Part shown: piece after piece, positions 6,539 through 64,000 of the stretch
Numbering within the stretch: the stretch's first letter is position 1
How the letters are laid out: the number at the start of each line of letters is the position of its first letter
Assembly: GCA_903829945.1 (NCBI GenBank)
Contig: CAIKRV010000011.1
Span: 14,255 to 78,254 of the forward strand
Origin: an uncultured bacterium
GTDB taxonomy: Bacteria; Bacteroidota; Bacteroidia; CAILMK01
Length of the DNA stretch: 64,000 nucleotides
Direction: 5' to 3'
Made by a program: the position numbers and the translations under genes
Notes under the pieces: generated by a model
The model's database searches: none
Seen by the model: the letters and a program-made list of their open reading frames with translations, nothing else
What the model was told of the DNA's origin: nothing

Positions 6539-7954
6539 ATGCTGTTTAACACCCTACCGTTTTTTATTTTCTTTACTCTTGTATTTTCCCTTTATTGGGC
6601 CTTATACAAATTCAAGAACCTACAAAATGCTTTGCTGCTGTTGGCCAGTTATTATTTTTATGCATGGTGGAATCCGTATTTCTGCATCCTGCTACTTTTT
6701 AGCTCTACCTTGGGCTATAGCACGGGATTATGGATAGAGCAAACCCGAAAAGACAGCTACCGAAAAATTATCCTTGGCTTCACTATGGCTATTCACCTGT
6801 TAATTTTAGGATGGTTTAAATATTATAATTTTATTATTAATAGTTTAAACTCCATTTTTGGCTGGGTACATGTTCAACACCATATTCCTAATGAAGAAAT
6901 TATTTTGCCCTTAGCCATAAGTTTTTTCACCTTTCACATCATTGGATATACTATTGATGTGTATCGAAAAGATTATGCTGCCTCGCATGACTACTTCAAC
7001 TTTATAGCGCATATTGCATTTTTTCCGCAGTTGGTGGCAGGGCCCATTGAAAGAGGCGGACATTTATTACCACAATTTAGGAAAGAGCGACAATTTTCTG
7101 TGGATATGCTGGTATCAGGAGGCCGACAAGCTTTATGGGGATTTTTTAAGAAAATTGCCATCGCGGATATGTTGTCTTTGCAAGTGGATTACATTTTTAA
7201 AAATCATAGTTCACAAAGCGGTAGTACTTTATTGATGGGAACCATTATGTTTTCTATTCAAATTTATTGTGATTTTTCAGGCTATACCGACATTGCCCTA
7301 GGAATTGCAAGAATGCTTGGAATAGAACTACTTACTAATTTCAAATTCCCCTATTTCGCAACCAGTATTACGGAATTTTGGCATCGTTGGCATATTTCAT
7401 TATCCACTTGGTTCCGGGATTATGTATATATCCCCTTGGGAGGAAGCAGGGTTTCCAATGGTAGAAAATATTTCAACCTGATGGTGGTTTTTATGGTAAG
7501 CGGAATGTGGCATGGAGCAAAATGGACCTTCTTTATATGGGGAGCAATACATGGTAGCTTAATGGTACTCAATGCTGCCATGTCTAAAAAAATGAAGCTT
7601 CCGTCTAATAATTTAACATTAGGTTTAAAGATGTTGCTTACATTTGCAATCGTAACATTGGCCTGGGTATTTTTTAGGGCCGCCTCAGTGCAAGAAGCTA
7701 CTGATATCATCGGGAATATATTTACAAGAGGATTAAAGGATTTACCTTCCATTCAAAAAACAGGTATAAAGGGACTTTTATGCGCTTTATTTCTTTTTGG
7801 AGTGGAATGGTTGCAACGTGATAAGGTCTTTGGATTAGACCTTAAAAACATGCATTATACTATTCGATGGTCGGCATATGTCTTGATTATTATCTTGATA
7901 TTTTCATCGGATAGCTTGAACAAACAACATGAATTTATTTATTTTCAATTCTAA
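6539..7954 (+). CDS. MBOAT family membrane-bound O-acyltransferase (AlgI/DltB-like), paralog 1.
   Basis: It is polytopic and carries the conserved FFPQLVAGPIERG and EFWHRWHISLSTWFRDYVYIPLGGS motifs with the MBOAT catalytic His. The C-terminus ends ...FIYFQF. Confidence 0.85.
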   Translation: MLFNTLPFFIFFTLVFSLYWALYKFKNLQNALLLLASYYFYAWWNPYFCILLLFSSTLGYSTGLWIEQTRKDSYRKIILGFTMAIHLLILGWFKYYNFIINSLNSIFGWVHVQHHIPNEEIILPLAISFFTFHIIGYTIDVYRKDYAASHDYFNFIAHIAFFPQLVAGPIERGGHLLPQFRKERQFSVDMLVSGGRQALWGFFKKIAIADMLSLQVDYIFKNHSSQSGSTLLMGTIMFSIQIYCDFSGYTDIALGIARMLGIELLTNFKFPYFATSITEFWHRWHISLSTWFRDYVYIPLGGSRVSNGRKYFNLMVVFMVSGMWHGAKWTFFIWGAIHGSLMVLNAAMSKKMKLPSNNLTLGLKMLLTFAIVTLAWVFFRAASVQEATDIIGNIFTRGLKDLPSIQKTGIKGLLCALFLFGVEWLQRDKVFGLDLKNMHYTIRWSAYVLIIILIFSSDSLNKQHEFIYFQF

Positions 7955-30435: not shown

Positions 30436-31956
30436 ATGTACACGCTTAGGGAAATATTTTCTTTTATTGAGAACAAACCTCTTCTCTTTACTCAATATCT
30501 ATTTTGGATGTTTTTCGGGGTTTTGTTATTGATTTATACCCTAATTTTCAGAAATGACACCTTTAGAAGAAGATTACTTTTAATTTTTAGTATCTTTTTT
30601 TACTATAAATCCGGTGGATATTTCTTTTTACTCTTGCTACTATCTACCGTTATGGATTTTGGTTTGGGTAAATTAATTCATAGTGGAAAAACACAATGGC
30701 ATCGTAAGTTTTATGTAACCTGTAGTGTAATTTTAAACTTAGGACTATTATCCTATTTTAAGTATTATCAATTTTACTTAAATCTAATAAACGATATATT
30801 AGGGACTAATTATAAAGCCTTTAATTATTTAGCCAATTGGACGAATGGTATTTCAGGCAGTCATTTTGATATATGGACAGTAATGTTGCCGGTAGGAATT
30901 TCCTTCTATACTTTTCAATCCTTAAGCTATACCATAGATATTTACCGCAAAAAAATAGAGCCGGTCAGTAATATTTTAGATTTTGCTTTTTTTGTCACCT
31001 ATTTCCCTCAATTAGTGGCAGGACCCATTGTTCGAGCTGCAGAGTTTTTGCCTCAAATACACAAAAAATATGCACTAAGCTCTGAAGATTTTGGTAAGGC
31101 TGCTTATCTAATCATGGCAGGATTAATTAAGAAAATGGTTATTTCAGACTATATTTCCTTAAATTTTGTAGATAGAGTCTTTGAAAACCCCATATTATAT
31201 AGCGGTTTTGAAAATTTAATGGCAGTATACGGTTATACCATCCAAATTTATTGCGACTTTTCAGGATATACAGATATAGCTATCGGTTTGTCATTATTAT
31301 TAGGCTACCATTTACCGGTAAATTTTAATTCCCCATACCAATCCGTAAATATTACAGAATTCTGGAGACGTTGGCATATATCTCTATCTACTTGGCTTAA
31401 AGACTACTTATACATTCCATTAGGAGGAAATAGAAAGGGGAAAATCAGAACTTATATTAACTTATTTCTTACCATGTTGCTTGGTGGTTTATGGCATGGG
31501 GCACATATTAGATTTTTAATATGGGGAGGATTGCAAGGATTAGCATTAGCGCTTCATAAATTCTGGATGAAAATATTTCCAAGTGGCAATCAAAGGAAAG
31601 ATTCAAAATTCATATTGATGTGCAGCGGCATTTTAACCTTCAATTTTGTCGCTTTTTGCTGGATATTTTTCAGAGCGCCCAATTTGTCAATTGTAGGTCA
31701 AATACTCAGTCAAATTGGAAATAATTTTCATTTTAACCTCATTGGCAAAGTGGTTACTTCCTATAGTAATGTCTTTATTCTGATGCTTGTAGCCTATTTT
31801 ATTCACCTTTGGCCCCAATCATGGAAGTATGCCATACGTTTACGATTTACGGCCTGGCCAATTTATATCAAAGCAATAATAATCAGCATATTAGTAATTT
31901 TGATTTATCAGGCTACCTCCTCAGCTATACAGCCCTTTATTTATTTCCAATTTTAA
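30436..31956 (+). CDS. MBOAT family membrane-bound O-acyltransferase, paralog 2.
   Basis: It carries YFPQLVAGPIVRAAEF, EFWRRWHISLSTWLKDYLYIPLGGN and the C-terminal ...FIYFQF, the same architecture as 6539..7954. No adjacent AlgX-like partner. Confidence 0.85.
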   Translation: MYTLREIFSFIENKPLLFTQYLFWMFFGVLLLIYTLIFRNDTFRRRLLLIFSIFFYYKSGGYFFLLLLLSTVMDFGLGKLIHSGKTQWHRKFYVTCSVILNLGLLSYFKYYQFYLNLINDILGTNYKAFNYLANWTNGISGSHFDIWTVMLPVGISFYTFQSLSYTIDIYRKKIEPVSNILDFAFFVTYFPQLVAGPIVRAAEFLPQIHKKYALSSEDFGKAAYLIMAGLIKKMVISDYISLNFVDRVFENPILYSGFENLMAVYGYTIQIYCDFSGYTDIAIGLSLLLGYHLPVNFNSPYQSVNITEFWRRWHISLSTWLKDYLYIPLGGNRKGKIRTYINLFLTMLLGGLWHGAHIRFLIWGGLQGLALALHKFWMKIFPSGNQRKDSKFILMCSGILTFNFVAFCWIFFRAPNLSIVGQILSQIGNNFHFNLIGKVVTSYSNVFILMLVAYFIHLWPQSWKYAIRLRFTAWPIYIKAIIISILVILIYQATSSAIQPFIYFQF

Positions 31957-36372: not shown

Positions 36373-39081
36373 ATGCGTATAGGGATATTTTTTGGAGGTA
36401 AATCAAGAGAACGTGAAATTTCATTTGCAGGAGGCAGAACCGTATATGATTTATTGGATAAATCAGTATTCACTCCTATTCCCATTTTTGTAGATAGTTT
36501 AGGAAATTTTATTTTATTGGATTGGGAATATTTATATAAAGGAAGTATTCGTGATTTCTATCCACCCGTAAAGCATTTAGAAAAACAAGACGAAAACTTT
36601 CAGATCTATATTGAATCACTCTCCGACCTAAACATATCAAAGCAAGAAGAAATAATAGCAGAAGTTGGCAAAAAAATCAGTCCGGAAAACTTTAAGGATT
36701 ATTTTGATTTTGCTTTTTTGGCCTTACATGGGCCATATGGGGAAGATGGCAGTATTCAAGGCATCCTTGAATATTATAACATGCCGTACTCAGGATCGGG
36801 TGTCCTTCCTTCTGCTGTTGGCATCAATAAAGTTGTTCAAAAGCATTTCTTAAAAGAAATGGGAATAAAAGCAGCTGAATCCACCAGCGTGAAGCGAGAG
36901 CATTGGATGAGCGGCTCTGAAAATAAATTAAATTTTTTCAATTCCTTAAAATCACAATTTTTACTTCCTGTGGTTATAAAATCAAGTTCACAAGGTTCCT
37001 CCATCGGTGTGTCAATTTTGAAGGCATGGGATTTTGAGCAATTTGAAAATTTAATAAACCGCAGCTTCTTTCAGCAAACGGTAAGTAAAAGCGAATGGAT
37101 AGAGAAAAGTCCAGAACAAAAGAGAATATTTATTCAACAATTATGTGATATATATGAAGGCATAGGCGTTCCCCTTCAATGTATAGGTTTGGAAAATCAA
37201 ACTCCGATCATAAAACTTCCAGCCGTAGTATATCAAACCTTAGAAAAACATTTTGAGGACCATTCCAACGCTTTAACCCTAATAAGTCTTCAGACAGAAA
37301 GCGAAGTACTGGTTGAAGAATTTATAAGAGGAAAAGAATTTTCTTGTATCGTGGTGGAAGGAGAAAATGATGAACCTATAGCATTACCTCCTACAGGGAT
37401 TATTAAAAACGATGAAATATTTAATTATCGCGCCAAATACTTACCGGGCATTTCAAGAAAAGTAACCCCTATTGATTTGCCCGAACCGCAAATTGAACAA
37501 ATAATAAATGCATGTGAGCAATTATATCAGGCATTAAAATTTGATGTTTACGCAAGAATTGATGGTATGATTACTGAGGAAGGAGTTATTTATTTGAATG
37601 ATCCTAATACCACTTCAGGGATGCTTCCTTCGAGTTTCTTTTTTCATCAAGCTGCCGAAATTGGATTAAGTCCCTCACAATTCTTAAGTTTTATAATTTA
37701 TAAATCCGTAGCAAAAAGAATTGAACATACGCACCATGCATTCCCCTTGCTTGACTTACAAAAGAAGCTCCATGAAAAATTATTATTGAACACTGAATCT
37801 AATACTCATAAATTGAGAGTTGGGGTGGTGTTAGGGGGAATATCTACAGAAAGACATATTTCAGTAGAAAGCGGCAGAAATGTATTTGAAAAATTATCCT
37901 CCTCCGGAAAATATCAAGTATCTCCGATATTTTTGACACAGGAAGGAGAAGAAATTAGTCTTTTTTCACTGCCCATGAATTTATTACTTAAAGATAATGC
38001 TGACGATATTAGCGAAAAAGTAAAAAATTATCATAGTGCCCCTATTATAGACAAAATAATTACAAAGGCTGCTTTTATTAGTCATCATTTTACCTCGGGT
38101 AATTATGAATTTAAACCTAAATCCATTCCCATTGCCGAATTAAAAAACAACTTTGATTTTATATTTATAGGATTGCATGGAAGACCGGGAGAAGATGGCA
38201 CTTTACAAAAAAGTTTAGAACAATTAAATATTCCATATAATGGATCAGGTATTGACTCCTCCGGCATTACGATTAACAAATATCTGACCAATGAAATTTT
38301 ACATAGTCATGGTTTTTTAATTCCAAAACATTTTCTAATAAATAAGAGCGAATGGCTAGCAGATGCTTCCGCTTTATATACAAACATTGAAAGTCATCTT
38401 CCCTATCCTATTATTGCAAAACCTGCAGATGATGGCTGTTCTTCGGCAGTAAAGAAAATTAATTCCCGAGCGGAATTAGATGTTTTTACCAAAGCAATGT
38501 TTAGAAATGAAATTGAATTAAATAATACTTTACGAGATAGTTTGTCCTTATTAGGCAATGAAGAATTTCCTAAAAAAGATTTTTTTGTTGTGGAAGAATT
38601 GGTGGCCCCTGAAGGAGCAAAGCATTTTATTGAAATAACAGGAGGAATGCTTACAAGTTATGACGAAGAAGGTGCCATTAAATATGAATTATTTGAACCT
38701 TCTGAAGCCTTAGCTTCCAAGGGGATATTATCCTTAGAAGAAAAGTTTTTAGCAGGAGAAGGACAAAACATTACTCCGGCTCGTTTTTCCGGGCAAGCAG
38801 AAGAAAATAAAAGTATTTCTAAAATAGTAAGAGAAACTTTAGGGGCTGCAGCTAAGGTATTGAATATTGAAGGTTATTGTCGAATTGACGCCTTTGTGCG
38901 TATTTTTTCGAAAGATAAAGTTGAAGTAATTTTTATTGAAGTAAACTCACTACCGGGATTAACACCCGCAACATGTATTTTCCACCAAGCTGCATTGAAT
39001 GGTTATAAACCATTCCAATTCCTTGATCATATCATACAATATGGAATCGAAAAAGAAAACAGACGGAGCCCAAGAAGCTGA
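36373..39081 (+). CDS. Tandem (internally duplicated) D-alanine--D-alanine ligase family ATP-grasp protein, 902 aa.
   Basis: Module 1 carries MRIGIFFGGKSREREISFAGGR, LHGPYGEDGSIQGILE, VVIKSSSQGSSIGVS and YARIDGMITEEGVIYLNDPNTTSGM. Module 2 carries LRVGVVLGGISTERHISVESGR, LHGRPGEDGTLQKSLE, IIAKPADDGCSSAV and CRIDAFVRIFSKDKVEVIFIEVNSLPGL. Both have long insertions. Confidence 0.6.
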   Translation: MRIGIFFGGKSREREISFAGGRTVYDLLDKSVFTPIPIFVDSLGNFILLDWEYLYKGSIRDFYPPVKHLEKQDENFQIYIESLSDLNISKQEEIIAEVGKKISPENFKDYFDFAFLALHGPYGEDGSIQGILEYYNMPYSGSGVLPSAVGINKVVQKHFLKEMGIKAAESTSVKREHWMSGSENKLNFFNSLKSQFLLPVVIKSSSQGSSIGVSILKAWDFEQFENLINRSFFQQTVSKSEWIEKSPEQKRIFIQQLCDIYEGIGVPLQCIGLENQTPIIKLPAVVYQTLEKHFEDHSNALTLISLQTESEVLVEEFIRGKEFSCIVVEGENDEPIALPPTGIIKNDEIFNYRAKYLPGISRKVTPIDLPEPQIEQIINACEQLYQALKFDVYARIDGMITEEGVIYLNDPNTTSGMLPSSFFFHQAAEIGLSPSQFLSFIIYKSVAKRIEHTHHAFPLLDLQKKLHEKLLLNTESNTHKLRVGVVLGGISTERHISVESGRNVFEKLSSSGKYQVSPIFLTQEGEEISLFSLPMNLLLKDNADDISEKVKNYHSAPIIDKIITKAAFISHHFTSGNYEFKPKSIPIAELKNNFDFIFIGLHGRPGEDGTLQKSLEQLNIPYNGSGIDSSGITINKYLTNEILHSHGFLIPKHFLINKSEWLADASALYTNIESHLPYPIIAKPADDGCSSAVKKINSRAELDVFTKAMFRNEIELNNTLRDSLSLLGNEEFPKKDFFVVEELVAPEGAKHFIEITGGMLTSYDEEGAIKYELFEPSEALASKGILSLEEKFLAGEGQNITPARFSGQAEENKSISKIVRETLGAAAKVLNIEGYCRIDAFVRIFSKDKVEVIFIEVNSLPGLTPATCIFHQAALNGYKPFQFLDHIIQYGIEKENRRSPRS

Positions 39082-54147: not shown

Positions 54148-56262
54148 TTAATTTAGAATCAACTTACTTGAGGTAACACCTGTGTTACTATTAATGCTTA
54201 TAAAATATAAACCTTTCGGTAAATTCTCAAGATTAATTCTTTGAGCATTGGCATTAGCCACAATTTTTGAACTATATACCAACCTTCCAAAAGCATCAAA
54301 AATTCTTAATTGAGAAATACCTTCCTTACTATCGCTAAGGCTAACATCAAAAATACCTGAATTCGGATTTGGATAAATTTTTAATTCTGCAACATTATTT
54401 TTGATCGGCTCAATGCCGGTACATACTGCCACCACCATATCTTTCATTATGGAATCAGAACAATATGCATCACTTAATTTTAGCATGATGTGCTTTGTTC
54501 CTACAGAATCATAAACTCTAATAGGATTTTGAACACTAGTAGTGGTATCTCCAAGATTCCAAATTCTTTTGGCATTAGCAGGCACATTAGATTTATCATA
54601 AAAATAAGTTTTGCTTCCTGCACAAGCCGTATCTTTAATTACCGCACTTACAATAAATGGATTTAACGTTACTGAATCCACAACTCCACCGGCACCATTT
54701 ACAATAATAACAACATATTTACCCGGACCCTTTGCAACAATGGAATCACTGGTACTGCTGCTATCATAATTCCAGCGATAAATAGCGCCCTTATTTCCGG
54801 CCCCGGCACGTAATACCACCGGTCCGCAATAAGAACGACCTTGTTTATTTATGGTTCGAATAGGGTTATAAGATGAACCGCATTTTTTACCCGGAGAAGC
54901 ATATACTTTTAAGCCCGACAAGGTATCTACAAAATCCGCAGAGGCAGTCCAACTGAAAGTAGTATCAAATGCGTTACATCGAACTACTGAAGAGCCTCCA
55001 CCATTTGCAGAAGGTGGCCAAGGGTAGGTATTGGTATAGGTAAATGAATCTAAATAATCCCCGGTGGTATTTTTTAAATGGACTGGGCTTCCGGAATTAA
55101 TTAATTTAGCACCGGAATCCCATTGGTACGCATGCATTTTTGATACTTTATAATAGAAACTATCAAATAATAATGAGTCACGGGCAATTAAAAAATAATG
55201 CCCCGGCAACACTAATTTTTGGGGCAATACCATGGTAATGCCTTTGGTAAATTGCAAACCTCCTATTGGTAAGGTATCAGTGGTATAATTGTACAATTCT
55301 ATAAATTCCAAGTTTCGTGTGCCCGGATTATTATACATAAATTCTGTTACCTTAATTCCTTTTTTCATTCCATTAAACAAAAACCTATAGGTTTGCGGAA
55401 TGATCATTAAATTACCTGAGGTATCTCTGATGCTATCAATGGTGATGGTATAATAATTTCCGTCCTTTAAGGATTTACCTAAGTAAATTGTTAAGGTATC
55501 CAAGGTTACTGTCAATTTCGCAGAATCTGCATGTTTAACTGCATTTCCGGAATAATGTTTCAAAGTATCTGCCGATTTACTGATCGGCTTACTAAAAATA
55601 ATTTTAATATGATGACTGGTCGATGTATAAACGGAAACCACTACCGGAGGAGTAGTGTCTTTCCCATTTCCACTACATCCGTATCCAGGATTTCCTCTCA
55701 TTGCTTTGCCATTGACAGTAGCAATATAATTAGTAGCAGTTGACCAATTCCATGGACCGTGTTCACTTTTAGTTTCATCACATAAGACCAGAGAAGGTCC
55801 ATTGCCGGCAGCATTTTTAGGCCATGGCTTTTTTACCCCATATAAAACGGTATCTACCACCTTGCCACTTGGATCTAAAATCCCAATGGATTCACCAGAA
55901 TTGCTTAAGCCACCTGAAGTCCACTGCCAACCATGAGCGGAATGCTTAGTTATTGCATCTAATTTTATAGAATCTTTACAAAACAATATTCTCCCCTTTG
56001 AGGCTAAAACCACCCCTTTGGGAATGGTATATACTACGCCTTGTAAAGTATATCCGCCTAAATTTATTGCATTTGAAGTAGTATTGTAAACTTCAAAATA
56101 TTCAAACGTATCAGGTGTTTCAGGTGGGTCATACATGATCTCGGTAATTTTAAGATCACCGCTTTTTGCATATTTTTGTGCAGAGGCATTTATTGTAATA
56201 ATTAAGCCAAGGCAACACAATAATAAAATTCTCTTCATATTTTCGCAATAATTAAAAGGCAA
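54148..56262 (-). CDS. T9SS type A C-terminal-domain cargo protein with two lamin-tail (LTD) domains and Ig/PKD-like domains.
   Basis: The C-terminal Por_Secre_tail is ...LKIYPNPNSGIFDV...LPKGLYFISINSNTGVTSSKLILN. The two LTD units are ITEIMYDPPETPDTFEYFEVYNT and VTEFMYNNPGTRNLEFIELYNY. The signal peptide probably starts at MKRILLLCCLG. Confidence 0.75.
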   Translation of the reverse strand: MPFNYCENMKRILLLCCLGLIITINASAQKYAKSGDLKITEIMYDPPETPDTFEYFEVYNTTSNAINLGGYTLQGVVYTIPKGVVLASKGRILFCKDSIKLDAITKHSAHGWQWTSGGLSNSGESIGILDPSGKVVDTVLYGVKKPWPKNAAGNGPSLVLCDETKSEHGPWNWSTATNYIATVNGKAMRGNPGYGCSGNGKDTTPPVVVSVYTSTSHHIKIIFSKPISKSADTLKHYSGNAVKHADSAKLTVTLDTLTIYLGKSLKDGNYYTITIDSIRDTSGNLMIIPQTYRFLFNGMKKGIKVTEFMYNNPGTRNLEFIELYNYTTDTLPIGGLQFTKGITMVLPQKLVLPGHYFLIARDSLLFDSFYYKVSKMHAYQWDSGAKLINSGSPVHLKNTTGDYLDSFTYTNTYPWPPSANGGGSSVVRCNAFDTTFSWTASADFVDTLSGLKVYASPGKKCGSSYNPIRTINKQGRSYCGPVVLRAGAGNKGAIYRWNYDSSSTSDSIVAKGPGKYVVIIVNGAGGVVDSVTLNPFIVSAVIKDTACAGSKTYFYDKSNVPANAKRIWNLGDTTTSVQNPIRVYDSVGTKHIMLKLSDAYCSDSIMKDMVVAVCTGIEPIKNNVAELKIYPNPNSGIFDVSLSDSKEGISQLRIFDAFGRLVYSSKIVANANAQRINLENLPKGLYFISINSNTGVTSSKLILN

Positions 56263-56998: not shown

Positions 56999-57394
56999 AT
57001 GGGCAATACTTATAAAGCAATAACGAATGATGTAAAAGTGATTGTAGAATCATTTTATCAGGATTCTGCCTCCTATCCGGATAGCATGCATTATGTATTT
57101 GCCTATAGAATCACCATAGAAAATCATAGCGAACATACCATCAAACTTTTACGCCGCCATTGGTATATTATAGATGGTGATGGTGCCAAAAGTGAGGTGG
57201 AAGGTGAAGGCGTAATAGGTCAACAACCAATTTTAGAGCCGGAACAAATACATCAATATGTTTCAGGCTGTAATCTTCATACCGAAATTGGTAAAATGTT
57301 TGGAACTTACCTCATGGAAAAGATTTCAGATGGCACTACCTTTTATGTAGAGATTCCGGAATTTTTGATGGTAGCACCCTATAGATATAATTAA
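56999..57394 (+). CDS. apaG: ApaG (DUF525) domain protein.
   Basis: YAFAYRITIENHSEHTIKLLRRHWYIIDGDGAKSEVEGEGVIGQQPIL matches the ApaG core. The length is 131 aa. Confidence 0.7.
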   Translation: MGNTYKAITNDVKVIVESFYQDSASYPDSMHYVFAYRITIENHSEHTIKLLRRHWYIIDGDGAKSEVEGEGVIGQQPILEPEQIHQYVSGCNLHTEIGKMFGTYLMEKISDGTTFYVEIPEFLMVAPYRYN

Positions 57395-57408
57395 TAAATA
57401 AGCTTATA

Positions 57409-57447
57409 AAAAGAAAGCCGGTGCACTATTGCACCGGCTTTCTTTTT
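57409..57447. terminator. Bidirectional rho-independent terminator.
   Basis: aagaaagccggtgca-ctat-tgcaccggctttctt, a 15-bp stem flanked by A-rich and T-rich sequence, between convergent genes. Confidence 0.85.
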
Positions 57448-57460
57448 ATGTTCAATTTAA

Positions 57461-58072
57461 TTATTCGGTAGGCATATCAGTATATCCGTCTTTTTCTTCC
57501 GTATTAGCACCATTCTGGTTCATAATTTTCTTCTTATTCACAACATATTTATGTGGGAATAAATTCTTGGTATTTAAATCATAATCCTTATTGACATACT
57601 TATGTGCTGCTTGATCATACTTAATGATAGTTAGCATTTTATGATCTTTTCTCATCGTATAAATTAACAATAAAGGCTCACCGTTATTAGCTGAATTTAG
57701 TTGATAGAAAAAAACGGCGTCCTCCCCGGAATAACCCTTTAAATCCAATTTATAAAGTGTGACCCAATCATCTAATTTTGCATCATAAACTACAATGGTA
57801 CAAATTTGACCACCCGCTGATGACAGTTTGTAAATGATAGTATCCACTACCCCATCCTTATCAAAATCATAAGTAGTAAGAGGCATAGCCTTTTTCATTA
57901 CATTTATTTTCATTTTTTTATCTGCCGGATGGTCCTGCGGATAACCTTTTACGTAATCCACAATTCTGAAATCAGCAGCAGCCTGCCCTTTGACGATAAG
58001 GCTAAAACACAATAAGGTTAGTGATATTAAAAAAGTCTTTTTCATGATATTGTCATTAAATAAGGGTTGCAA
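57461..58072 (-). CDS. Secreted hypothetical protein.
   Basis: The signal peptide is MKKTFLISLTLLCFSLIVKGQ, from the internal Met. The protein is about 194 aa with no recognisable motif. Confidence 0.45.
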   Translation of the reverse strand: MQPLFNDNIMKKTFLISLTLLCFSLIVKGQAAADFRIVDYVKGYPQDHPADKKMKINVMKKAMPLTTYDFDKDGVVDTIIYKLSSAGGQICTIVVYDAKLDDWVTLYKLDLKGYSGEDAVFFYQLNSANNGEPLLLIYTMRKDHKMLTIIKYDQAAHKYVNKDYDLNTKNLFPHKYVVNKKKIMNQNGANTEEKDGYTDMPTE

Positions 58073-58112
58073 TTTACAAGAAAAAATATTTATCTTACCC
58101 CTTCCCGGTATT

Positions 58113-58153
58113 AAAAATGCAAAGCCCGAATAGTATTTCCATTCGGGCTTTGC
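58113..58153 (-). terminator. Rho-independent terminator of the giant T9SS gene.
   Basis: gcaaagcccgaat-agtatttcc-attcgggctttgc, with a T5 tail on the minus strand (plus-strand aaaaa at 58113-58117). Confidence 0.7.
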
Positions 58154-58170
58154 AATTAAAATGATTAATT

Positions 58171-61100
58171 TTATTTTAATCGTATCAACTCTTTGGTAAT
58201 TACCTGTTCATTAATCATCATTCTTAATAAATACATTCCTTGATTTAAGGATATATCCTTTGCCTGAATTTCAATTTCATGTAAACCGGATGCCTGATTT
58301 GCCTCAACTAAAGTTCCTAAACATTTTCCATCTAAACTATAAATGGAAACTTTTACCTTGGACTGATAAGGTATTATATAACTAAGCTTTGTTTCCTCTT
58401 TAAATGGATTTGGATAAATATTTAGTTGCAGGGATTCGGAATTTAAAATTGAATTAATACCGGTAAATATTACAAGACTGGTATCAAAGCTCGATACACA
58501 ACCGTTATTATTAATACTTAAACTAATTTTATAAGTACTATCTACTGCATACGCATGCAATACATGATAAGTATTGGCAGAACTGCTGTCCCCAAAATTC
58601 CAAGTATAAGCTAGTGGGCTATAAGTAGTATCGTCTGCATTAAATAAATAAGTTCGTTTTCCGCTTAGCTTAGTAGAAAAATGCGCATTTGGAATGGGGG
58701 CAATAATAATATTCGAAGAAGTACTATCAGTACATCCGTATGAATTTTTTACGACTAAACTAACCGCATATTTTGCAGCACTTGTATAGGTATGGGAAGG
58801 CAACTTAGCAATACTTGTATTTCCATCCCCAAAATACCATTTTTGTGAGGCATAATTACTTGAGGTATCCGCAAAAGAAGTAGCAGAACCAAAACATGTT
58901 TTTCCTACAGAAATCATTGCCGTAGGCTTTGGATTTAAGACAATATTTGCAGTATTAGAATCTTTACAACCGAAATTACTGGTTTCAATAACTTTTAAAA
59001 TTCCTGTTGCTGATTTTGCATTCCAAAGAACTTGAATGGTATCCTTGGTATTGCTCCCTGAAATGCTTCCATTTAGAATTGTCCATTGATACGTAGCACC
59101 CGCATCATTTGCTGTTCCATATACTACCGAACTTCCACCACAAATTGGTGAAATAATTTTACCTATCGCAGGACTCGGACGAGTATTTACTGTTATGGTA
59201 ATAGAATCTGAATTGGAACAAGCGGTAGATGAATTGGTCTCCACCAAATAATAAGTAGTACTCACTAAAGGACTTACTTTATTAGAACTATTGCCGGAAG
59301 TATAACCTGCCGGATGGCTGGTCCAAGAATAAGAATTACCACTTACAGATACTGATCCAATGGTAGTAGAATCCCCATGACAAATTGCAACTGATGAACC
59401 TGTAATTGCTTTTGGCAATGCATTTATTTGCACCGTATCTGTTGTAGAATCAGCACAAGAATTTGAATTTGTTTCCACTAATTTTATCCATGCCTTGCCT
59501 GCACTTCCCCAGGTTATGCCTACAGTGTTAGTACCGGCACCTGTGCTCAAGGTTCCTCCGTTGAGCGACCAGGAATATTTATTTCCCGTACTTGATGCAC
59601 TATATGTTTGGGAGGCAGCAGCACAAACATTCAGCTTACCATTAATTTTTGCTTTAGGACTACTATTAATGGTCACAGAAGTAGAACCGGCAGCACTGGT
59701 ACAAGAACCAACTGTTACGGTAACTGAATATAATCCGGAATCTAATTTTGTAACACTGCTAATGCTTGGATTTTGTGTGCTGGAACTAAAACTATTTGGT
59801 CCTGTCCAACTATAGCTGCCACCTGATACTGTACTTGCGGTTAAATTTAAAGTACTATAAGGACATAAAGGCCCATTATTTGATGCAGTAGGTGCCGCCG
59901 GAGTTGCATTGACGCTTACCAGCACCGAATCAGTTTTGGAACATCCGGTAGCGATAATCGTTTCTGTCAAATAATAGGTAGTTGTAGTAGTAGGGCTCAC
60001 ACTTGGATTGCTTGTAGTATCTGAAAAACCGCTTGGTGAAGAAATCCATTTATATTTACTGCCGCTCACTTTTGCTGCTCCTATGGATACAGACTTGCCG
60101 GAGCAAATGGTGGCACCGCCGGCTACTGCGGCAGCAGGTAAGGCATTCACTGTTATTTTTACAGAATCTGTTTTGCTACAGGAGGTACTACTTACCTTTT
60201 CTGTCAAATAATAAGTTGTATTTACACTTGGGCTTACACTTGGATTTGCACTGGAAGAAGTAAATCCGGAAGGATTACTGGTCCATGAATAGGTGTTTCC
60301 GACCACAGCGCTTGCACCAATAGTAGTTGTGCTACCATTACATAAACTTTGTGGTGATCCTACCAGTGCCTTCGGCGAAGTTTTCATGGTAATTACCACA
60401 CTATCCTTTTTGGAACATCCTGTGCCAGCAATCAGCTCGGTGAGATAATAAGTTGTACTTGCTAAAACAGTAATTTTAGGATTAGAGCTTGTATCACTGA
60501 AACCACTAGGATTGGAACTCCATTTATATTTATGACCACTTAAGGTACTGGCACCTAAACTTAAAATTGTATTGCTGCAAACACTGGTATCATTTGCCAC
60601 TTTTGCCAATGGTAATGGATTCACTGTAATGGTAGTAGAATCAGAATTTGAACAACCTGTTGCGCTTATTGTTTCTGTTAATTTATAGGTTGTAGTAGTA
60701 CTTGGACTAACACTAGGATTTGCAGAAGTAGAACTATATCCTGAAGGATTACTGGTCCAACTGTAAGTATGACCTGAAATACTGGCTGACCCAATAGAAA
60801 TAGAACTTCCGGTACAAATAGCTTTTGAAGCAATGACGCCGGGAGTTGGTAAAAGATTAACTGTAATTTTTACAGAATCTTTGGCTGAGCAACCAGTGGC
60901 TGTAATGGTTTCTGTTAAAGTATAAACCGTAGTAACACTTGGGGCTACGCTCGGATTACTGCCAGTAGAACTATAACCGGATGGATTACTGCTCCAGCTA
61001 TAAGTATGGCCGGAGGTGGAAGCACCACCAATGCTGACAGAAGTTCCATTACAAATGGTACTTGCTGAAGCCACTGACGGACTTGGTAATGGATTAACAG

Positions 61101-64000
61101 TAATTTTAACAGAATCCGAATTGCTGCAACCGGTAGCGGTTATTGTTTCCGTAAGCGTATAAGTTGTAGTAGCACTAGGAGAAACACTAGGATTTGAAGA
61201 GGTAGAGGAATATCCGCTTGGATTGCTGCTCCAGCTATAGGAATGTCCTGAAGTGGAACTGGAACCTATAGATACGGAATTACCTTTACAAATTGAACTT
61301 GCACTTGCTACCCCTGGCACCGGTAATGGGTTAACAGTTACTTTCACAGAATCTTTTGCACTACAACCGGTAGCTGTAATTGTTTCCGTTAATGTGAATA
61401 CAGTAGTTGAAGTAGGACTTACTGTTGGTTTACTATTGGTAGATGTATATCCACTCGGATTACTGGTCCAACTATAGGTATGTCCGGCTACAGCACTTGC
61501 CCCAATGGTGGTAGATTTACCGCTACAGATGGAACTGGCACTACCCACACTTGGGGTAGGTGCAGGATTTACAGTAATTTTAACTGAATCTGTTTTAGTA
61601 CATCCTGTAGCGCTAATGGTTTCCGTTAATTTATATGTAGTCGTTGTTGTAGGACTTACACTAGGATTGGCGCTACTAGCACTAAATCCGGAAGGATTAC
61701 TGCTCCAACTATAGGTATGACCGGAAGTAGAAGAACCACCTATCGTAGTAGATGTACCGCTACAGATAGTTGCTGCACTCCCTACCGTGGCACTCGGTAG
61801 AGGATTGACGGTTAAACTTAAAGTTGTAGTATCGTTGGCATTATTACCATCAGTAGTACCATTGGGACTGGAAGACCAGATTTTAATCGCATAAGTACCA
61901 CTGGAAAATGCATAAGAACCTAAAGATATAGAAGCAGTAGAACCGGAGCTTAAAGACCCGGTCCAACTTTTGGCCGTTTGTGTAGTACCATTCACTGACC
62001 AGTTAATAGTTGCAGAAGTCAGAGTACTTGTGCCATAATTTTCCAAAGTTGCCGATACGGAACCCGTAGCAGCACAAATTGGTGAACCAGGTGCCGTTAT
62101 GGCACTCATACCGGCATCAGTAGCTATGGCAGGGGTAAATTCATCTGCACCGATATCCGGAGTCGTTAAACTTCTGGTTTGTCCATCAATATCATCAGTG
62201 ATACCACTAATGGGGATACCTGCATTATTAATTCCGGAATTACTAACATGTAAATCCGTAGAAGAAGTGTACCCGGGATTTACACTTTTGCTATTTGAAT
62301 TCATACTGCTACCGCTAACTAAATTACTTAGGGTTGAATAGGAAGTACCATTCCAACTTGCAAGCGTAGAACCGCTGGAATAAATATTATTATAAGAACA
62401 TGCACTCACAAAAGATGAATTATAAACATATAAGGCATCTCCGCCTCCAGAATTGATAAAATTATTATTTTTAATAATAACTCCACCTGCACTTGCAGGG
62501 TAAATATACACCGCGTAGGCCGTACCTGTATTGGTACAAGAAATATTGTTATAATATATATTATCATAGGTGGCGCTATTGAGGTTAATAGCATAGGCGG
62601 TAGCCGTACCGGAAATAGTAATAAAATTATTATAAATATTAGCACTGGAATAAGAACCACTTATTCCACTTAATGAGATTCCATTATTATTTTTAACCGC
62701 GATTTTATTTTTATAAACATTTTCCGGAATGGTATTACTTGCCTCTACAATATTAATCGCATCGCCACCGGTACCGGTTAAATTCGTAATTGTATTTCTG
62801 CTGATGGTTGCCCCCACTTGATAGGAAACTTGAATACCGCGCTTATAAGCACTATCAATGGTATTTCCATCAAAAATTAATTTTTGCGTATATTCTTCGT
62901 GGATGCCTTCGTATCCATAACGAATAAGGTTATTTCTAAATAAATTCGAAGTATCGGCGGTATTATTAAAGATCGAATAAATACATCTTCCACCATTGGT
63001 ATTAGCATAATTATTTATACCGATAATGCAATTATTTAAAAAAGAATTATTGGAGGCACCATCATGCAATTGTACCACATTATAATTTGAAGCAGGTGTA
63101 CCACTACTGCTTCTTTTGATAGTAAGCTGTTTAAAAATAACCCAATTGGTACTGTCCAAATCGAATTCATAATCACCGGTAGCAGAGTTGGTATATAAAA
63201 TCACTTTAGAACTATCTGCACTTTGACTTTGGAAAGTAACGGTATTGGTAGATGAAACACCGGAAAGGCTTCCTATACGTACCACTTCATTGTAGCTTCC
63301 ATCTCTTACATTAAATACCACCGGTCCGCAAACCCCCATATTGGTTAAATCACTAATGGCAGCGGTAAAGCTTGCATAATTCGGGCTTGTACCTCCAATA
63401 GTATATGTGCCCTTCATGCAAGGACGTGGAACTTCATTTGCTCCTATACAAGGTCGAGGCGTGGTTCGAGTTATTCCATCTATATCAGTGGTAATGGCAC
63501 TATATGCTAAACCTTTATTTCTTAATCCCGTATTTGTAGCATGTAAATCTGTAGTAGTAGTATTATAATTTGGATCAATATTCAATGAATTAGTATCCGA
63601 TACTGCTCCGGTAATATGAGCTGATAAACTCGCATATTTAACACCATTCCAATAACTAAAATAAGAACCCGAGGTATATAAATTATTAAAGTTAGAAAAT
63701 ACGTTTCCTAAAATATTATAGCCATATAATGAAAAACCTCCACCCTTATTTACAAAATTATTATTGTAAAAATGAACATATGAGCCGCTTGCATTTATAT
63801 AACATGCAGCTGAAGTGCTTGCAGAAGAAGTAACATTAATATTATTAAAAACAACATCCAAATGCCCACAAGCATTTAAGTAAATACCATCGGAATAATT
63901 AGAACTGGCCACTGTGATAAAATTATTTGCAATTAATGCATTTGAGGAAATAGTAGAAGCTCCATTCTTATAGTAAATACCATATCCGCCGGGCTTATTA
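58171..64000 (-). CDS. Giant T9SS type A cargo adhesin-like protein, longer than 1,940 aa, with its N-terminus beyond the window. It has beta-helix modules, a CARDB-like domain, twelve 79-84-aa tandem repeats, two PKD domains and a Por_Secre_tail.
   Basis: The frame is open from 64000 with no stop. The track GTG at 63912 is internal (upstream it reads ...NKPGGYGIYYKNGASTIS...). The N-terminal region holds right-handed parallel beta-helix repeats (NNNFINSGGGDALYVYNS). The C-terminal sorting tail is LQLNIYPNPFKEETKLSYIIP...GMYLLRMMINEQVITKELIRLK. Confidence 0.85.
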   Translation of the reverse strand, partial: NKPGGYGIYYKNGASTISSNALIANNFITVASSNYSDGIYLNACGHLDVVFNNINVTSSASTSAACYINASGSYVHFYNNNFVNKGGGFSLYGYNILGNVFSNFNNLYTSGSYFSYWNGVKYASLSAHITGAVSDTNSLNIDPNYNTTTTDLHATNTGLRNKGLAYSAITTDIDGITRTTPRPCIGANEVPRPCMKGTYTIGGTSPNYASFTAAISDLTNMGVCGPVVFNVRDGSYNEVVRIGSLSGVSSTNTVTFQSQSADSSKVILYTNSATGDYEFDLDSTNWVIFKQLTIKRSSSGTPASNYNVVQLHDGASNNSFLNNCIIGINNYANTNGGRCIYSIFNNTADTSNLFRNNLIRYGYEGIHEEYTQKLIFDGNTIDSAYKRGIQVSYQVGATISRNTITNLTGTGGDAINIVEASNTIPENVYKNKIAVKNNNGISLSGISGSYSSANIYNNFITISGTATAYAINLNSATYDNIYYNNISCTNTGTAYAVYIYPASAGGVIIKNNNFINSGGGDALYVYNSSFVSACSYNNIYSSGSTLASWNGTSYSTLSNLVSGSSMNSNSKSVNPGYTSSTDLHVSNSGINNAGIPISGITDDIDGQTRSLTTPDIGADEFTPAIATDAGMSAITAPGSPICAATGSVSATLENYGTSTLTSATINWSVNGTTQTAKSWTGSLSSGSTASISLGSYAFSSGTYAIKIWSSSPNGTTDGNNANDTTTLSLTVNPLPSATVGSAATICSGTSTTIGGSSTSGHTYSWSSNPSGFSASSANPSVSPTTTTTYKLTETISATGCTKTDSVKITVNPAPTPSVGSASSICSGKSTTIGASAVAGHTYSWTSNPSGYTSTNSKPTVSPTSTTVFTLTETITATGCSAKDSVKVTVNPLPVPGVASASSICKGNSVSIGSSSTSGHSYSWSSNPSGYSSTSSNPSVSPSATTTYTLTETITATGCSNSDSVKITVNPLPSPSVASASTICNGTSVSIGGASTSGHTYSWSSNPSGYSSTGSNPSVAPSVTTVYTLTETITATGCSAKDSVKITVNLLPTPGVIASKAICTGSSISIGSASISGHTYSWTSNPSGYSSTSANPSVSPSTTTTYKLTETISATGCSNSDSTTITVNPLPLAKVANDTSVCSNTILSLGASTLSGHKYKWSSNPSGFSDTSSNPKITVLASTTYYLTELIAGTGCSKKDSVVITMKTSPKALVGSPQSLCNGSTTTIGASAVVGNTYSWTSNPSGFTSSSANPSVSPSVNTTYYLTEKVSSTSCSKTDSVKITVNALPAAAVAGGATICSGKSVSIGAAKVSGSKYKWISSPSGFSDTTSNPSVSPTTTTTYYLTETIIATGCSKTDSVLVSVNATPAAPTASNNGPLCPYSTLNLTASTVSGGSYSWTGPNSFSSSTQNPSISSVTKLDSGLYSVTVTVGSCTSAAGSTSVTINSSPKAKINGKLNVCAAASQTYSASSTGNKYSWSLNGGTLSTGAGTNTVGITWGSAGKAWIKLVETNSNSCADSTTDTVQINALPKAITGSSVAICHGDSTTIGSVSVSGNSYSWTSHPAGYTSGNSSNKVSPLVSTTYYLVETNSSTACSNSDSITITVNTRPSPAIGKIISPICGGSSVVYGTANDAGATYQWTILNGSISGSNTKDTIQVLWNAKSATGILKVIETSNFGCKDSNTANIVLNPKPTAMISVGKTCFGSATSFADTSSNYASQKWYFGDGNTSIAKLPSHTYTSAAKYAVSLVVKNSYGCTDSTSSNIIIAPIPNAHFSTKLSGKRTYLFNADDTTYSPLAYTWNFGDSSSANTYHVLHAYAVDSTYKISLSINNNGCVSSFDTSLVIFTGINSILNSESLQLNIYPNPFKEETKLSYIIPYQSKVKVSIYSLDGKCLGTLVEANQASGLHEIEIQAKDISLNQGMYLLRMMINEQVITKELIRLK
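58936..61806 (-). repeat. Twelve in-frame tandem coding repeats inside the giant T9SS gene. Eight are well conserved at 237 bp each (59911..61806) and four are more divergent at 237-252 bp.
   Basis: The repeat consensus is NPLP-x-VGSA-x-ICSGxSTTIGxSSTSGHTYSWSSNPSGYSSTSSNPSVSPSxTTTYTLTETITATGCSxxDSVKITV. Phase was checked by translation: repeat 1 starts at AAT 61806 and repeat 3 at AAC 61332. Confidence 0.8.

Follow-up and report, generated by a model that had tools for sequence, protein, structure and literature searches.

What the long, repeat-rich gene at the end of this locus encodes, and whether its repeats are still changing in number, are the two questions raised by the 64,000-nucleotide stretch of contig CAIKRV010000011.1, from an uncultured Bacteroidota bacterium, analysed here (the window). 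From the window by itself one would deduce a giant adhesin whose repeat array is unstable, as in the initial annotation, while consideration of the whole gene corrects both points.

The gene extends beyond the window

Translation of 63999..58171 on the minus strand yields 1,942 codons and a stop codon (58171-58173) with no internal stop, and the frame is thus open to the window edge, as was noted initially for a protein of more than 1,940 amino acids. The GTG at 63912, which might be taken for the gene start, is an edge artefact of the ORF listing. A complete protein of 3,204 amino acids in the public assemblies (P0001) shares 100 % identity and coverage with the window part, and the genes which flank it agree with the neighbouring genes in the window. 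The gene, with a predicted length of 9,615 bp, was located on ENA/NCBI contigs of 54-124 kb, the sequence beyond coordinate 64000 being part of the ENA assemblies ERZ1426825 and ERZ1426842. The window part comprises the C-terminal 1,942 of the 3,204 residues, i.e. the back 60 % of the protein, while the 5' part beyond the edge is known here as the protein sequence of P0001. From the N- to the C-terminus, P0001 incorporates a putative signal peptide, an FTP-type propeptide, an M4 protease, three beta-helix modules (BH1 to BH3), a CARDB domain, twelve Ig-like slots, two PKD domains and a type A sorting domain for type IX secretion (T9SS). The N-terminus (MYAFKKLPFVGLGLKKWFCGISFLIILFNQSYA followed by G) resembles a signal peptide as judged by eye, and the Pfam matches include, besides both M4 families, a weak FTP match, Ig_7 (nine), PKD (two) and Por_Secre_tail. 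The features are located as follows, in the order of the protein:

Beyond the window edge, gene would end at ~67785: putative signal peptide, propeptide, M4 protease, all of BH1 and the rest of BH2
63433..63999, minus strand: C-terminal 189 aa of BH2 (P0001 residues 1263-1451), ending ...TDIDGITRTTPRPCIGANE
62140..63420, minus strand: BH3, 427 aa, predicted with AlphaFold2 and Foldseek
61807..62139, minus strand: CARDB, 111 aa (PF07705; marginal at 23.6 bits, cut-off 22.7, E 6e-5, and reached only by scanning the segment in isolation)
59911..61806, minus strand: slots 1-8, eight contiguous Ig_7 units (PF19081, Pfam) of 79 aa / 237 bp each
59671..59910, minus strand: slot 9, divergent Ig-like, 80 aa, with the motif GLYSVTVT (sub-threshold in Pfam)
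59425..59670, minus strand: slot 10, PKD-like PKD_6 (PF19408), 82 aa (32.2 bits, cut-off 25)
59188..59424, minus strand: slot 11, ninth Ig_7, 79 aa (30.8 bits, cut-off 27.3)
58936..59187, minus strand: slot 12, PKD_6-like, 84 aa (from motif pattern and orthologue comparison)
58420..58935, minus strand: two PKD domains (PKD_4 64.8 bits, PKD 35.2 bits, two stretches each)
58174..58419, minus strand: T9SS type A sorting domain (TIGR04183 and PF18962), followed by the stop codon
58118..58154, minus strand: terminator-like hairpin (16 pairs, 8 of them G-C, then TTTTT), 17 nt past the stop

Identity between the array units at codon positions 1, 2 and 3 is 0.70, 0.67 and 0.43, respectively, which identifies the minus frame as the coding frame. 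Antisense to the array, the plus strand has five ORFs with a length of 60 amino acids or more, in line with the several spurious ORFs reported for its complementary strand, and a sixth is found further up the gene.

An intact M4 protease at the N-terminus

Residues 242-565 of P0001, which fall outside the window, match the Peptidase_M4 (133.4 bits) and Peptidase_M4_C (161.8 bits) families above their gathering scores, and the domain aligns with the neutral protease 1NPC of B. cereus with an E-value of 7e-67. In this alignment the HEITH, NEGISDIFG and GVHTNSG stretches of P0001 match the zinc and catalytic motifs of thermolysin, and the M4 family signature is complete, including the HEXXH zinc motif, the Glu that serves as third zinc ligand (NExxSD) and the catalytic His. 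The head of P0001 is predicted on this basis to be a thermolysin-like M4 zinc metalloprotease with intact catalytic motifs, and the protein would thus be a T9SS-exported protease on a long stalk rather than simply an adhesin. The initial description as a giant T9SS adhesin is borne out as regards a very large type A T9SS cargo, while the term adhesin is at odds with a protein that begins with a putative signal peptide, a propeptide and this protease.

The M4 head is kept in 5/5 orthologue clusters, with identity falling as low as 43 %. Among the proteins containing the beta-helix module, only P0001-P0004 and P0021 have an M4 domain, while P0017 carries a subtilase (S8) head on the same type of stalk and in the same position. 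No head domain could be recognised on the same stalk in P0008, P0009 and P0014. A census based on M4-core peptide patterns distinguished 82 M4 ORFs (80 loci in GTDB species genomes), which are generic Bacteroidota M4 proteases of at most 57 % identity; the beta-helix module occurs in 0/82 of these and Ig_7 units in only 3/82.

Three beta-helix modules

The beta-helix modules of P0001 (residues 575-1013, 1019-1451 and 1456-1882) are 39-42 % identical to each other. Homology between the two modules visible in the window, which had already been pointed out, holds (residues 12-189 of the window protein, in BH2, against residues 444-620, in BH3; 41 % identity, E 2e-42), but the module is triplicated rather than duplicated, and sequence comparison marks the three copies as ancient paralogues. 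BH3 opens with an N-terminal cap (CMKGTYTIGG...), continues with ~13 rungs bearing an Asn ladder, and closes with a C-terminal tail (DIDGxxR...PDIGADE), for which there is a weak, sub-threshold match to the NCBIfam 'choice-of-anchor Q' model (16.6 bits; cut-off 25). The AlphaFold2 model of BH3 (pLDDT 91.2; pTM 0.92) has periodic short strands. Foldseek places right-handed beta-helix enzymes, namely LnbX, PL6 lyases, Pel9A and AlgG, at the top of its PDB matches, and the 42 matches at E<=1e-3 are essentially all beta-helix proteins. The modules are predicted from the model to adopt the right-handed parallel beta-helix fold. The Pfam Beta_helix family (PF13229) scores 20 bits in BH3, under its cut-off of 25.9, and does not match BH1, while precomputed matches to PF13229 or PF05048 exist for many proteins with the same module. 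The beta-helix profile also matches, marginally (E 6e-4), PDB entry 3ZPP, a 'cell wall surface anchor family protein'.

In a comparison of 353 modules (109 proteins), the residues conserved in the helix body are restricted to Asn and Gly, with the conserved Asn spaced ~25 residues apart, and no conserved Asp, Glu, Lys, Arg or His occurs there. The invariant charged residues D410, R416 and E427 are instead located in the C-terminal strap of the module. Between BH3 and the enzymes among its top fold matches, sequence identity amounts to 9-15 % and TM-scores to ~0.3-0.55, and no CAZyme family was matched in the Pfam and NCBIfam scans.

The Ig-like slots and their kinship with the GhpA stem

The CARDB-like domain had been recognised after the beta-helices in the initial annotation. 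The twelve slots that follow it belong to three domain types, with nine Ig_7 units, one divergent Ig-like domain and two PKD_6-like domains. The window protein matches Ig_7 with 156 bits in nine stretches, and single units score 30.3 and 30.8 bits (cut-off 27.3). For slot 9 the best Pfam matches are sub-threshold (Ig_2, 21.3 bits; Ig_7, 17.2 bits), and its position is kept in the orthologues at 71-79 % identity. Slot 12 matched no family when scanned alone against Pfam; its nearest relative in the window is slot 10, judged by eye on the shared motif pattern, and in the orthologue arrays it is most similar to their slot 12 (45-48 % identity), followed by their PKD_6-like slots 3, 4 and 10 (0.36-0.38).

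Twelve tandem Ig/HYR-like repeats of 79-84 amino acids had been described, of which the number, the sizes and the Ig-like character stand, while the three domain types and the results for HYR do not agree with it. HYR is matched by nothing at E<=1 when units 3, 9, 10, 11 and 12 and the CARDB segment are scanned alone, and by nothing at E<=0.01 in the whole window protein. The HYR, SprB and Big models put forward for the repeat were likewise rejected, with no match at E<=1, and above threshold single units match only Ig_7 (PF19081). The exact 237-bp period given for the eight repeats at 59911..61806 is correct, but this length is found in only 9/12 slots and does not extend to the array of twelve as a whole. 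A Cys at position 15 or 16 and a second one at positions 69-74 are present in 12/12 slots, as expected for the Cys near the start of the repeat, whereas the GC dipeptide reported near its end occurs in 8/12, being replaced by SC, SC, SC and AC in the others.

The Ig_7 units of slots 1-8 each possess Cys15, Cys69 and, with its first residue at position 73, a D-S-[V/T] sequon, and the broader D[ST][AILVMT] sequon is found at this position in 9/9 Ig_7 units. In the array this pattern occurs 14 times, against 2.9 expected, with 0/1,000 shuffles reaching 14. The AlphaFold2 model of units 3-4 (pLDDT 96.7) is all-beta, and Foldseek retrieves the Ig-like domains of GhpA before those of titin and Dscam; the top PDB matches are all GhpA stem fragments (Foldseek E ~1e-9). 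The Ig_7 profile matches GhpA with an E-value of 3e-216, in more than 30 stretches, and the identity to GhpA amounts to 24-31 %. Sequence and predicted fold both show the Ig_7 units to be homologues of the repeats in the stem of GhpA, the grappling-hook protein of Aureispira. GhpA is a T9SS substrate (bioRxiv 10.1101/2024.01.29.577165), and its stem counts 52 Ig-like repeats that carry O-glycans and disulfides. In P0001, Cys15 and Cys69 may pair inside one domain or, as is reported for GhpA, across adjacent domains.

Age and stability of the array

Nucleotide identity between the units is 49-69 %, with a longest shared exact run of 20 nt. Tandem Repeats Finder detects no arrays in 57000-64000, and the 237-bp period becomes visible only by gapless family detection (63-76 % identity). 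Three strain variants on six contigs, a small and nearly clonal sample, are all 3,204 amino acids long and lie 1-3 substitutions apart. Orthologues of ~55 % identity keep twelve slots, eight of which (slots 1 and 6-12) are positionally orthologous, and this correspondence is seen in relatives with a SerS only 84 % identical. Slots 2-5 differ between P0001 and P0002/P0003, and the more distant orthologues have nine or six Ig-like slots, with two beta-helix modules and not three. Remodelling of the array is, on these comparisons, seen only over deep evolutionary time.

The array had been described as recombination-prone and variable in copy number, which is not supported by the divergence of its units, the short exact runs and the constant length of the three variants; nor does the repeat number change among the ~55 % identical orthologues. 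Judged from its sequence, the array does not look recombination-prone today. A contingency-type array, with copy number shifting between strains by recombination, could draw on the deep-time remodelling of slots 2-5 and of the distant orthologues, but is scarcely credible in view of the low unit identity (0.43 at the third codon position), the silence of Tandem Repeats Finder, and the positional orthology of slots 1 and 6-12 in the relatives. Mis-assembly or repeat collapse was also considered and rejected, since units this diverged would not collapse and assemblies made independently give the same length. The repeats would serve as structural beads along a stalk, rather than as a DNA array of variable length.

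C-terminus and gene neighbourhood

Both the two PKD domains and the type A sorting tail reported for the C-terminus are confirmed by profile scores, the latter with 37.5 bits for TIGR04183 (cut-off 23) and 32.3 bits for PF18962 (cut-off 27) over residues 1861-1939 of the 1,942. Terminator-like sites number four, against 0.5 expected, and the protease gene appears, from the hairpin beyond its stop codon, to end its own transcript. Its neighbours are dnaE, the ApaG gene and one encoding a small secreted protein, and PorP/PorE homologues are absent from this neighbourhood. Two other cargo genes with a T9SS C-terminal domain (CTD) are encoded in the window, one of type A (54151-56262) and one of type B (CHU_C; 9415-13467), which is indirect evidence for a T9SS in the host. 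For SerS, the matches at 67-74 % identity bear names no finer than Bacteroidota, Bacteroidia or Sphingobacteriaceae bacterium.

A probable secreted protease on a stalk

The most probable reading, and one held with fair confidence, is that P0001 is a secreted protease, situated at the N-terminus and held on a T9SS-anchored or released stalk. Underlying it are the domain assignments, the intactness of the catalytic motifs, the two fold predictions, the kinship of the Ig_7 units with the GhpA stem and the evidence that the repeats are old and stable, while the export route follows established T9SS biology. P0001 would pass the inner membrane via the Sec pathway, whereupon the T9SS would recognise the C-terminal domain and carry the protein over the outer membrane; the sorting domain would then be removed and the protein either attached to the cell surface by its C-terminus or released. 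With the enzyme at the N-terminus and the anchor at the opposite end, a stiff stalk made up of the beta-helix modules and Ig-like domains would keep the protease away from the cell, a role suggested by the domain order and the likeness to GhpA. The stalk is probably disulfide-braced and O-glycosylated, with the Ser of the D-S-V sequon as a candidate site, its length can be put at 60-80 nm as a rough estimate, and a capacity to bind polymers may reside in the beta-helix modules. The subtilase-headed P0017, with the same stalk, suggests that the stalk is a reusable display scaffold.

Attachment could itself be the job of the protein, the beta-helix and Ig-like domains being its functional parts and the protease incidental or self-processing. 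A pure adhesin or surface fibre of this kind would account for the homology of the Ig_7 repeats to the stem of the GhpA adhesin, the marginal 3ZPP match and the stalks of P0008, P0009 and P0014 on which no head is recognised. It is nevertheless improbable, given that the motifs of the head are all intact and closely aligned with solved neutral proteases (E 7e-67) and that each of the five orthologue clusters has kept the head. A subtilase takes the same place in P0017, an argument for the head as the payload. A similarly low likelihood is assigned to a bifunctional degradative enzyme, in which the beta-helix modules would be active polysaccharide lyases, hydrolases or epimerases and both glycan and protein, for example of a cell wall or an algal matrix, would be attacked. 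The top fold matches are indeed all carbohydrate-active (GH136 LnbX, PL6, PL9, AlgG/AlgE and phage tailspikes), but the identities and TM-scores to them are low and no CAZyme family is matched, and the lack of conserved charged residues in the helix body makes a catalytic role unlikely.

The head may alternatively be cut off after export to yield a soluble protease, with the stalk either doing no more than assist its secretion or folding as a carrier, or staying behind as a surface fibre in its own right. This is the more serious alternative, yet still unlikely. The linker between the M4 domain and BH1 is short (AYSSAAAP), M4 and other secreted proteases often shed PKD or PPC domains from their C-terminus as they mature, and in gliding Bacteroidota many cargos with a type A CTD turn up in the culture fluid, all of which favour release. 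On the other hand, a carrier of 2,600 residues with positionally conserved domains would be costly if disposable, and no processing site was identified.

Comparison with known systems

P0001, with its protease borne on what would be a stalk, belongs to a class already described, the multidomain T9SS cargo proteases, where it is ordinary though very large. The gingipains and KLIKK proteases of oral Bacteroidota are T9SS-secreted CTD peptidases with the same general layout. A thermolysin-like peptidase secreted by the T9SS, C6N29_03390 of Flavobacterium columnare (682 aa; PMC9936825), similarly has an N-terminal catalytic M4/thermolysin domain, non-catalytic domains in between and a C-terminal T9SS sorting domain. 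The 3,204 amino acids of P0001 differ from it by an extension comprising the three beta-helix modules, CARDB, twelve Ig-like and two PKD domains. T9SS cargo in which beta-helix, Ig-like and PKD domains occur together was also looked for in the literature, with no relevant result. The same ~430-aa module, with its GTYTIGG cap and DIDGxxR...PDIGADE tail, is present in one to five tandem copies in giant 'right-handed parallel beta-helix repeat-containing' T9SS proteins of Bacteroidota metagenome-assembled genomes (P0006, P0007 and P0012, for example), often followed by CARDB, Ig_7, PKD and Por_Secre_tail. Unlike P0001, these proteins are mostly without a protease head. The SprB-type gliding adhesins of Flavobacterium are likewise very large, repetitive T9SS surface proteins. 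In SprB the CTD belongs to type B and there is a PorP-like partner dedicated to it, while P0001 has a type A CTD and is not matched by the SprB repeat (PF13573).

GhpA of Aureispira sp. CCB-QB1 (PDB 9FLP and related entries) resembles P0001 in being a giant Bacteroidota T9SS substrate with Ig_7-type repeats, and both have a distal N-terminal 'business end', a C-terminal sorting domain, paired Cys and Ser/Thr-rich repeats. They differ in that GhpA combines its 52 stem repeats with a hook domain and no enzyme, whereas P0001 has nine Ig_7 units, an M4 head and beta-helix modules. Furthermore, GhpA assembles as a heptamer into a tube of 240 nm, and its gene is adjoined by PorP/PorE homologues, while P0001 has no such neighbours. 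Ig_7 is widespread in Bacteroidota surface proteins, and the solved GhpA stem provides a template for modelling such stalks. The occurrence of the 'beta-helix, Ig_7, PKD, CTD' stalk under M4 or S8 heads further suggests that uncultured Bacteroidota possess a scaffold which can be reused to display enzymes outside the cell. Neither the template nor the shared stalk overturns the current view of T9SS cargo.

A bolder arrangement, to which very little probability is attached, is a multimeric, rigid GhpA-like fibre with a ring of M4 proteases at its tip and glycan-binding beta-helices behind, a 'proteolytic grappling hook' which, if real, would attack prey cells or particles on contact. The GhpA-homologous stem repeats, the distal position of the enzyme and the existence of a subtilase-headed variant of the stalk would fit such an arrangement.

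The full-length protein and its protease head

The minus-strand frame at positions 63999..58171 contains 1,942 sense codons with no internal stop and terminates at a stop codon at 58171-58173, its stop-free translation up to 63999 confirming that the ORF is open to the window edge, as the initial annotation had stated. The GTG start at 63912 given in the ORF listing is an artefact of that edge. A protein search identified an exact match, P0001, a protein of 3,204 aa with 100 % identity over the whole window part. P0001 is encoded in assemblies from both NCBI and ENA, where its contigs reach 124 kb in length. Its neighbours there (a small ORF, ApaG/DUF525, a 172-aa ORF and an LTD/Big_5/Por_Secre_tail protein) match the genes of the window. 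The 1,262 residues beyond the window include an N-terminus that is signal-peptide-like by eye, a weak FTP propeptide motif, Peptidase_M4 (133 bits) and Peptidase_M4_C (162 bits) domains, the whole first beta-helix module and most of the second. The M4 domain aligns with the Bacillus cereus neutral protease (1NPC) and thermolysin (E 1e-64 to 1e-67), and the motifs HEITH, NEGISDIFG and GVHTNSG sit at the zinc-binding and catalytic positions. On the basis of this alignment and these motifs, P0001 is a member of the thermolysin family of metalloproteases, of which the window contains the non-catalytic extension only.

Pfam and NCBIfam scanning of the window protein detected Ig_7 (PF19081; 156 bits in nine stretches), two PKD domains and a type A sorting tail (Por_Secre_tail/TIGR04183; 37.5 bits, above the cut-off of 23), the latter two as annotated, while the CARDB assignment was borne out marginally (23.6 bits against 22.7). 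The initial description was correct in all but minor points, and its interpretation about half so: P0001 is a very large T9SS cargo that combines beta-helix, CARDB, Ig-like and PKD domains with a type A tail, but the protease head was missed.

Features of the giant gene and its product
P0001 residues 575-1013, beta-helix module 1
P0001 residues 1019-1451, beta-helix module 2
P0001 residues 1456-1882, beta-helix module 3
58154-58118, minus strand, terminator-like hairpin beginning 17 nt past the stop codon

Beta-helix modules

Two homologous beta-helix modules had been annotated; the homology was upheld (window protein aa 12-189 versus aa 444-620; 41 % identity; E 2e-42), but the number was not, as there are three in P0001. 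The Pfam Beta_helix model scored below its cut-off on module 3 (20 bits versus 25.9), and the fold was thus tested directly by structure prediction. The AlphaFold2 model (15-sequence alignment; pLDDT 91.2; pTM 0.92) displays periodic short strands as in a beta-helix, and Foldseek returned 42 PDB matches at E<=1e-3, essentially all of them right-handed parallel beta-helix proteins, including GH136 lacto-N-biosidase, PL6/PL9 lyases, alginate epimerases and phage tailspikes (9-15 % identity). The same module is present in 109 of the 122 retrieved proteins (353 copies; one to five per protein). Across these 353 modules, the residues of the helix body conserved at >=80 % are Asn and Gly only, constituting a structural ladder, and the invariant charged residues D410, R416 and E427 (with G424) are found in a C-terminal DIDGxxR...PDIGADE strap. 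Such a pattern is what a structural or binding role would lead one to expect, and it speaks against a conserved active site. Among the orthologues of P0001 the modules correspond by position, with 55-61 % identity across species versus 39-42 % between paralogues, although module 3 is missing from P0003 and module 2 from P0004.

Identity of the twelve Ig-like slots

Each of the eight units at 59911-61806 is exactly 79 aa (237 bp) long, as originally reported, and the four slots beyond them comprise 80, 82, 79 and 84 aa. A Cys at position 15/16, in agreement with the annotated Cys near the start, and a second one at position 69-74 are common to all twelve slots; the GC dipeptide ascribed to every repeat occurs in only 8/12. 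When scanned singly against Pfam, units 3 and 11 scored above the Ig_7 gathering score with no other match of note, slot 10 was identified as PKD_6 (32 bits versus 25) and slot 9 gave weak Ig_2 and Ig_7 matches only. Slot 12 matched no family in its single scan, and its motif pattern resembles that of slot 10 by eye. The HYR, SprB and Big models were absent from the single-slot scans even at E<=1. On these results, the twelve slots represent nine Ig_7, one divergent Ig-like and two PKD_6-like domains. Their earlier designation as twelve Ig/HYR-like repeats named the wrong family, with the HMM check giving Ig_7 and PKD_6 instead.

The AlphaFold2 model of units 3-4 (pLDDT 96.7) is all-beta, and each of its top eight PDB hits is a fragment of the Aureispira grappling-hook protein, GhpA (24-31 % identity; E about 1e-9). 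Similarly, a profile of the Ig_7 units matched the GhpA sequence at E 3e-216 in >30 stretches. GhpA is a T9SS substrate with a disulfide-braced, O-glycan-covered stem of 240 nm, made up of 52 Ig-like repeats, while its functional part, the hook, is N-terminal and located at the distal end (bioRxiv 10.1101/2024.01.29.577165).

A D-S-[V/T/I] sequon is found at position 73 in 9/9 Ig_7 units (59188-61806, minus strand). It fits the general Bacteroidota O-glycosylation motif, D-[S/T]-[A/I/L/V/M/T]. The array incorporates 14 sequons versus 2.9 +/- 1.5 expected, a number reached in 0/1,000 shuffles.

Age and stability of the array

The array had been considered recombination-prone and variable in copy number between strains. 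The eight 237-bp units share 49-69 % nucleotide identity (mean 60 %) and 46-82 % amino acid identity, the longest exact run common to any two of them is 20 nt, and Tandem Repeats Finder reported nothing over the array region. Homologous recombination or assembly collapse between units is therefore unlikely, and the instability was overstated. Identity between units by codon position (0.70/0.67/0.43) is near saturation at third positions and indicates that selection acts on the minus frame; five plus-strand ORFs of >=60 aa run antisense to the array, where several spurious ORFs had been annotated, and one more occurs further up the giant gene. The GC content of positions 60001-62000, coinciding with the Ig_7 array, is 0.418 versus about 0.35 elsewhere. 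Since Ser, Thr, Gly, Ala and Pro are abundant in the array, this rise probably reflects codon composition, and a foreign origin is unlikely.

The P0001 cluster comprises three sequence variants on six contigs, all of 3,204 aa and 1-3 substitutions apart, which does not support variation in copy number between strains. The orthologues P0002 and P0003 (about 55-60 % identical to P0001) have twelve slots each. Position by position, slots 1 and 6-12 are orthologous to those in P0001, with 45-79 % identity on the diagonal, whereas slots 2-5 were remodelled: slots 3-4 are PKD_6-like in P0002/P0003 but Ig_7, most like unit 1/2, in P0001. More distant orthologues have nine (P0004) and six (P0021) slots. 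These slot and module comparisons show that domain number changes, but only over genus- or family-level divergence. A known domain without copy-number variation, named in the initial annotation as evidence against its reading, is essentially what emerged.

Distribution and genomic setting

A survey of GTDB species genomes for M4 relatives yielded >590 in Bacteroidota. Long ORFs are frequent among the M4 ORFs inspected, and a CTD-like tail closes each of the four longest that were examined. The beta-helix module was found in 0/82 inspected M4 ORFs of the GTDB species genomes, and Ig_7 units in 3/82 only. Among the retrieved proteins, M4, beta-helix and Ig_7 occur together only in P0001-P0004 and P0021, the last already named 'M4 family metallopeptidase' by NCBI. 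F. columnare is one organism from which T9SS-secreted thermolysin-like peptidases are already known (PMC9936825). P0001 is unusually large and has a rare architecture, though one built from standard Bacteroidota surface-protein parts. A relative of 2,224 aa, P0017 (47 % identity over 61 % of the query), combines a subtilase S8 head with one beta-helix module, seven Ig_7 units, PKD and a type A tail, so that one kind of stalk seems able to carry different proteases as an exchangeable scaffold. M4-head relatives were also met in MAGs assigned to Calditrichaceae and Mariniblastus (Planctomycetota). For others, the MAG labels, Bifidobacterium breve and Bordetella parapertussis, seem to reflect mis-binning or mislabelling of Bacteroidota contigs.

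The source is an uncultured Bacteroidota bacterium, with named relatives sharing no more than 67-74 % identity in SerS. The window has two further cargo genes, in keeping with an organism that possesses a T9SS; next to the giant gene there is no PorP/PorE-like gene.

T9SS cargo genes
54151-56262, minus strand, type A cargo of 704 aa with two lamin-tail domains, Big_5 and a type A tail
9415-13467, minus strand, type B cargo of 1,351 aa with DUF7948, SBBP beta-propeller, four PKD domains and CHU_C

Proposed function

By established T9SS biology, P0001 would be exported by Sec, after which its type A CTD would be recognised by the T9SS and removed, leaving the protein C-terminally attached to the surface or released. 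Since the anchored end would be the C-terminus, the 15 Ig-like/PKD/CARDB beads and three beta-helix modules may form an extended stalk, probably disulfide-braced and O-glycosylated, with the protease at its tip. With each bead taken to be about 4 nm long, after the 240-nm stem of GhpA, and each beta-helix module about 6 nm, the stalk would measure roughly 60-80 nm.

What the analysis shows directly are the domain identities, the intact catalytic motifs, the folds, the kinship of the Ig_7 units with GhpA, and repeats that are old and stable. Among rival readings, an adhesin-only role, to which the GhpA homology might lend itself, would have to accommodate the intact motifs of the head, just as catalytically active beta-helix modules, despite the lyases and epimerases sharing their fold, would have to accommodate a helix body conserved in Asn and Gly. 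A contingency-type repeat array, for which the remodelling of slots 2-5 might speak, would require younger and less stable repeats. The most plausible rival is that the head is released from the stalk, which is compatible with the tip-protease reading.

Other features of the window

Directly downstream of the giant gene, past the terminator, lies a 203-aa ORF (57461-58072, minus strand) with a signal-peptide-like start (MKKTFLISLTLLCFSLIVKGQ), for which no Pfam family was matched. A perfect palindromic hairpin with a 20-bp stem (57405-57450, both strands), between this ORF and the convergent ApaG gene, is probably a bidirectional terminator. A 902-aa ORF (36373-39078, plus strand) incorporates two Dala_Dala_lig_N matches and Dala_Dala_lig_C in four stretches, and looks like an unusual tandem-fused double Ddl with two complete D-Ala-D-Ala ligase units. 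Two separate genes for DltB-like (MBOAT) membrane acyltransferases (6539-7951 and 30436-31953, both plus strand) occur in this Gram-negative Bacteroidota genome; both score far below the equivalog cut-off and are probably alginate-O-acetylase-type paralogues.
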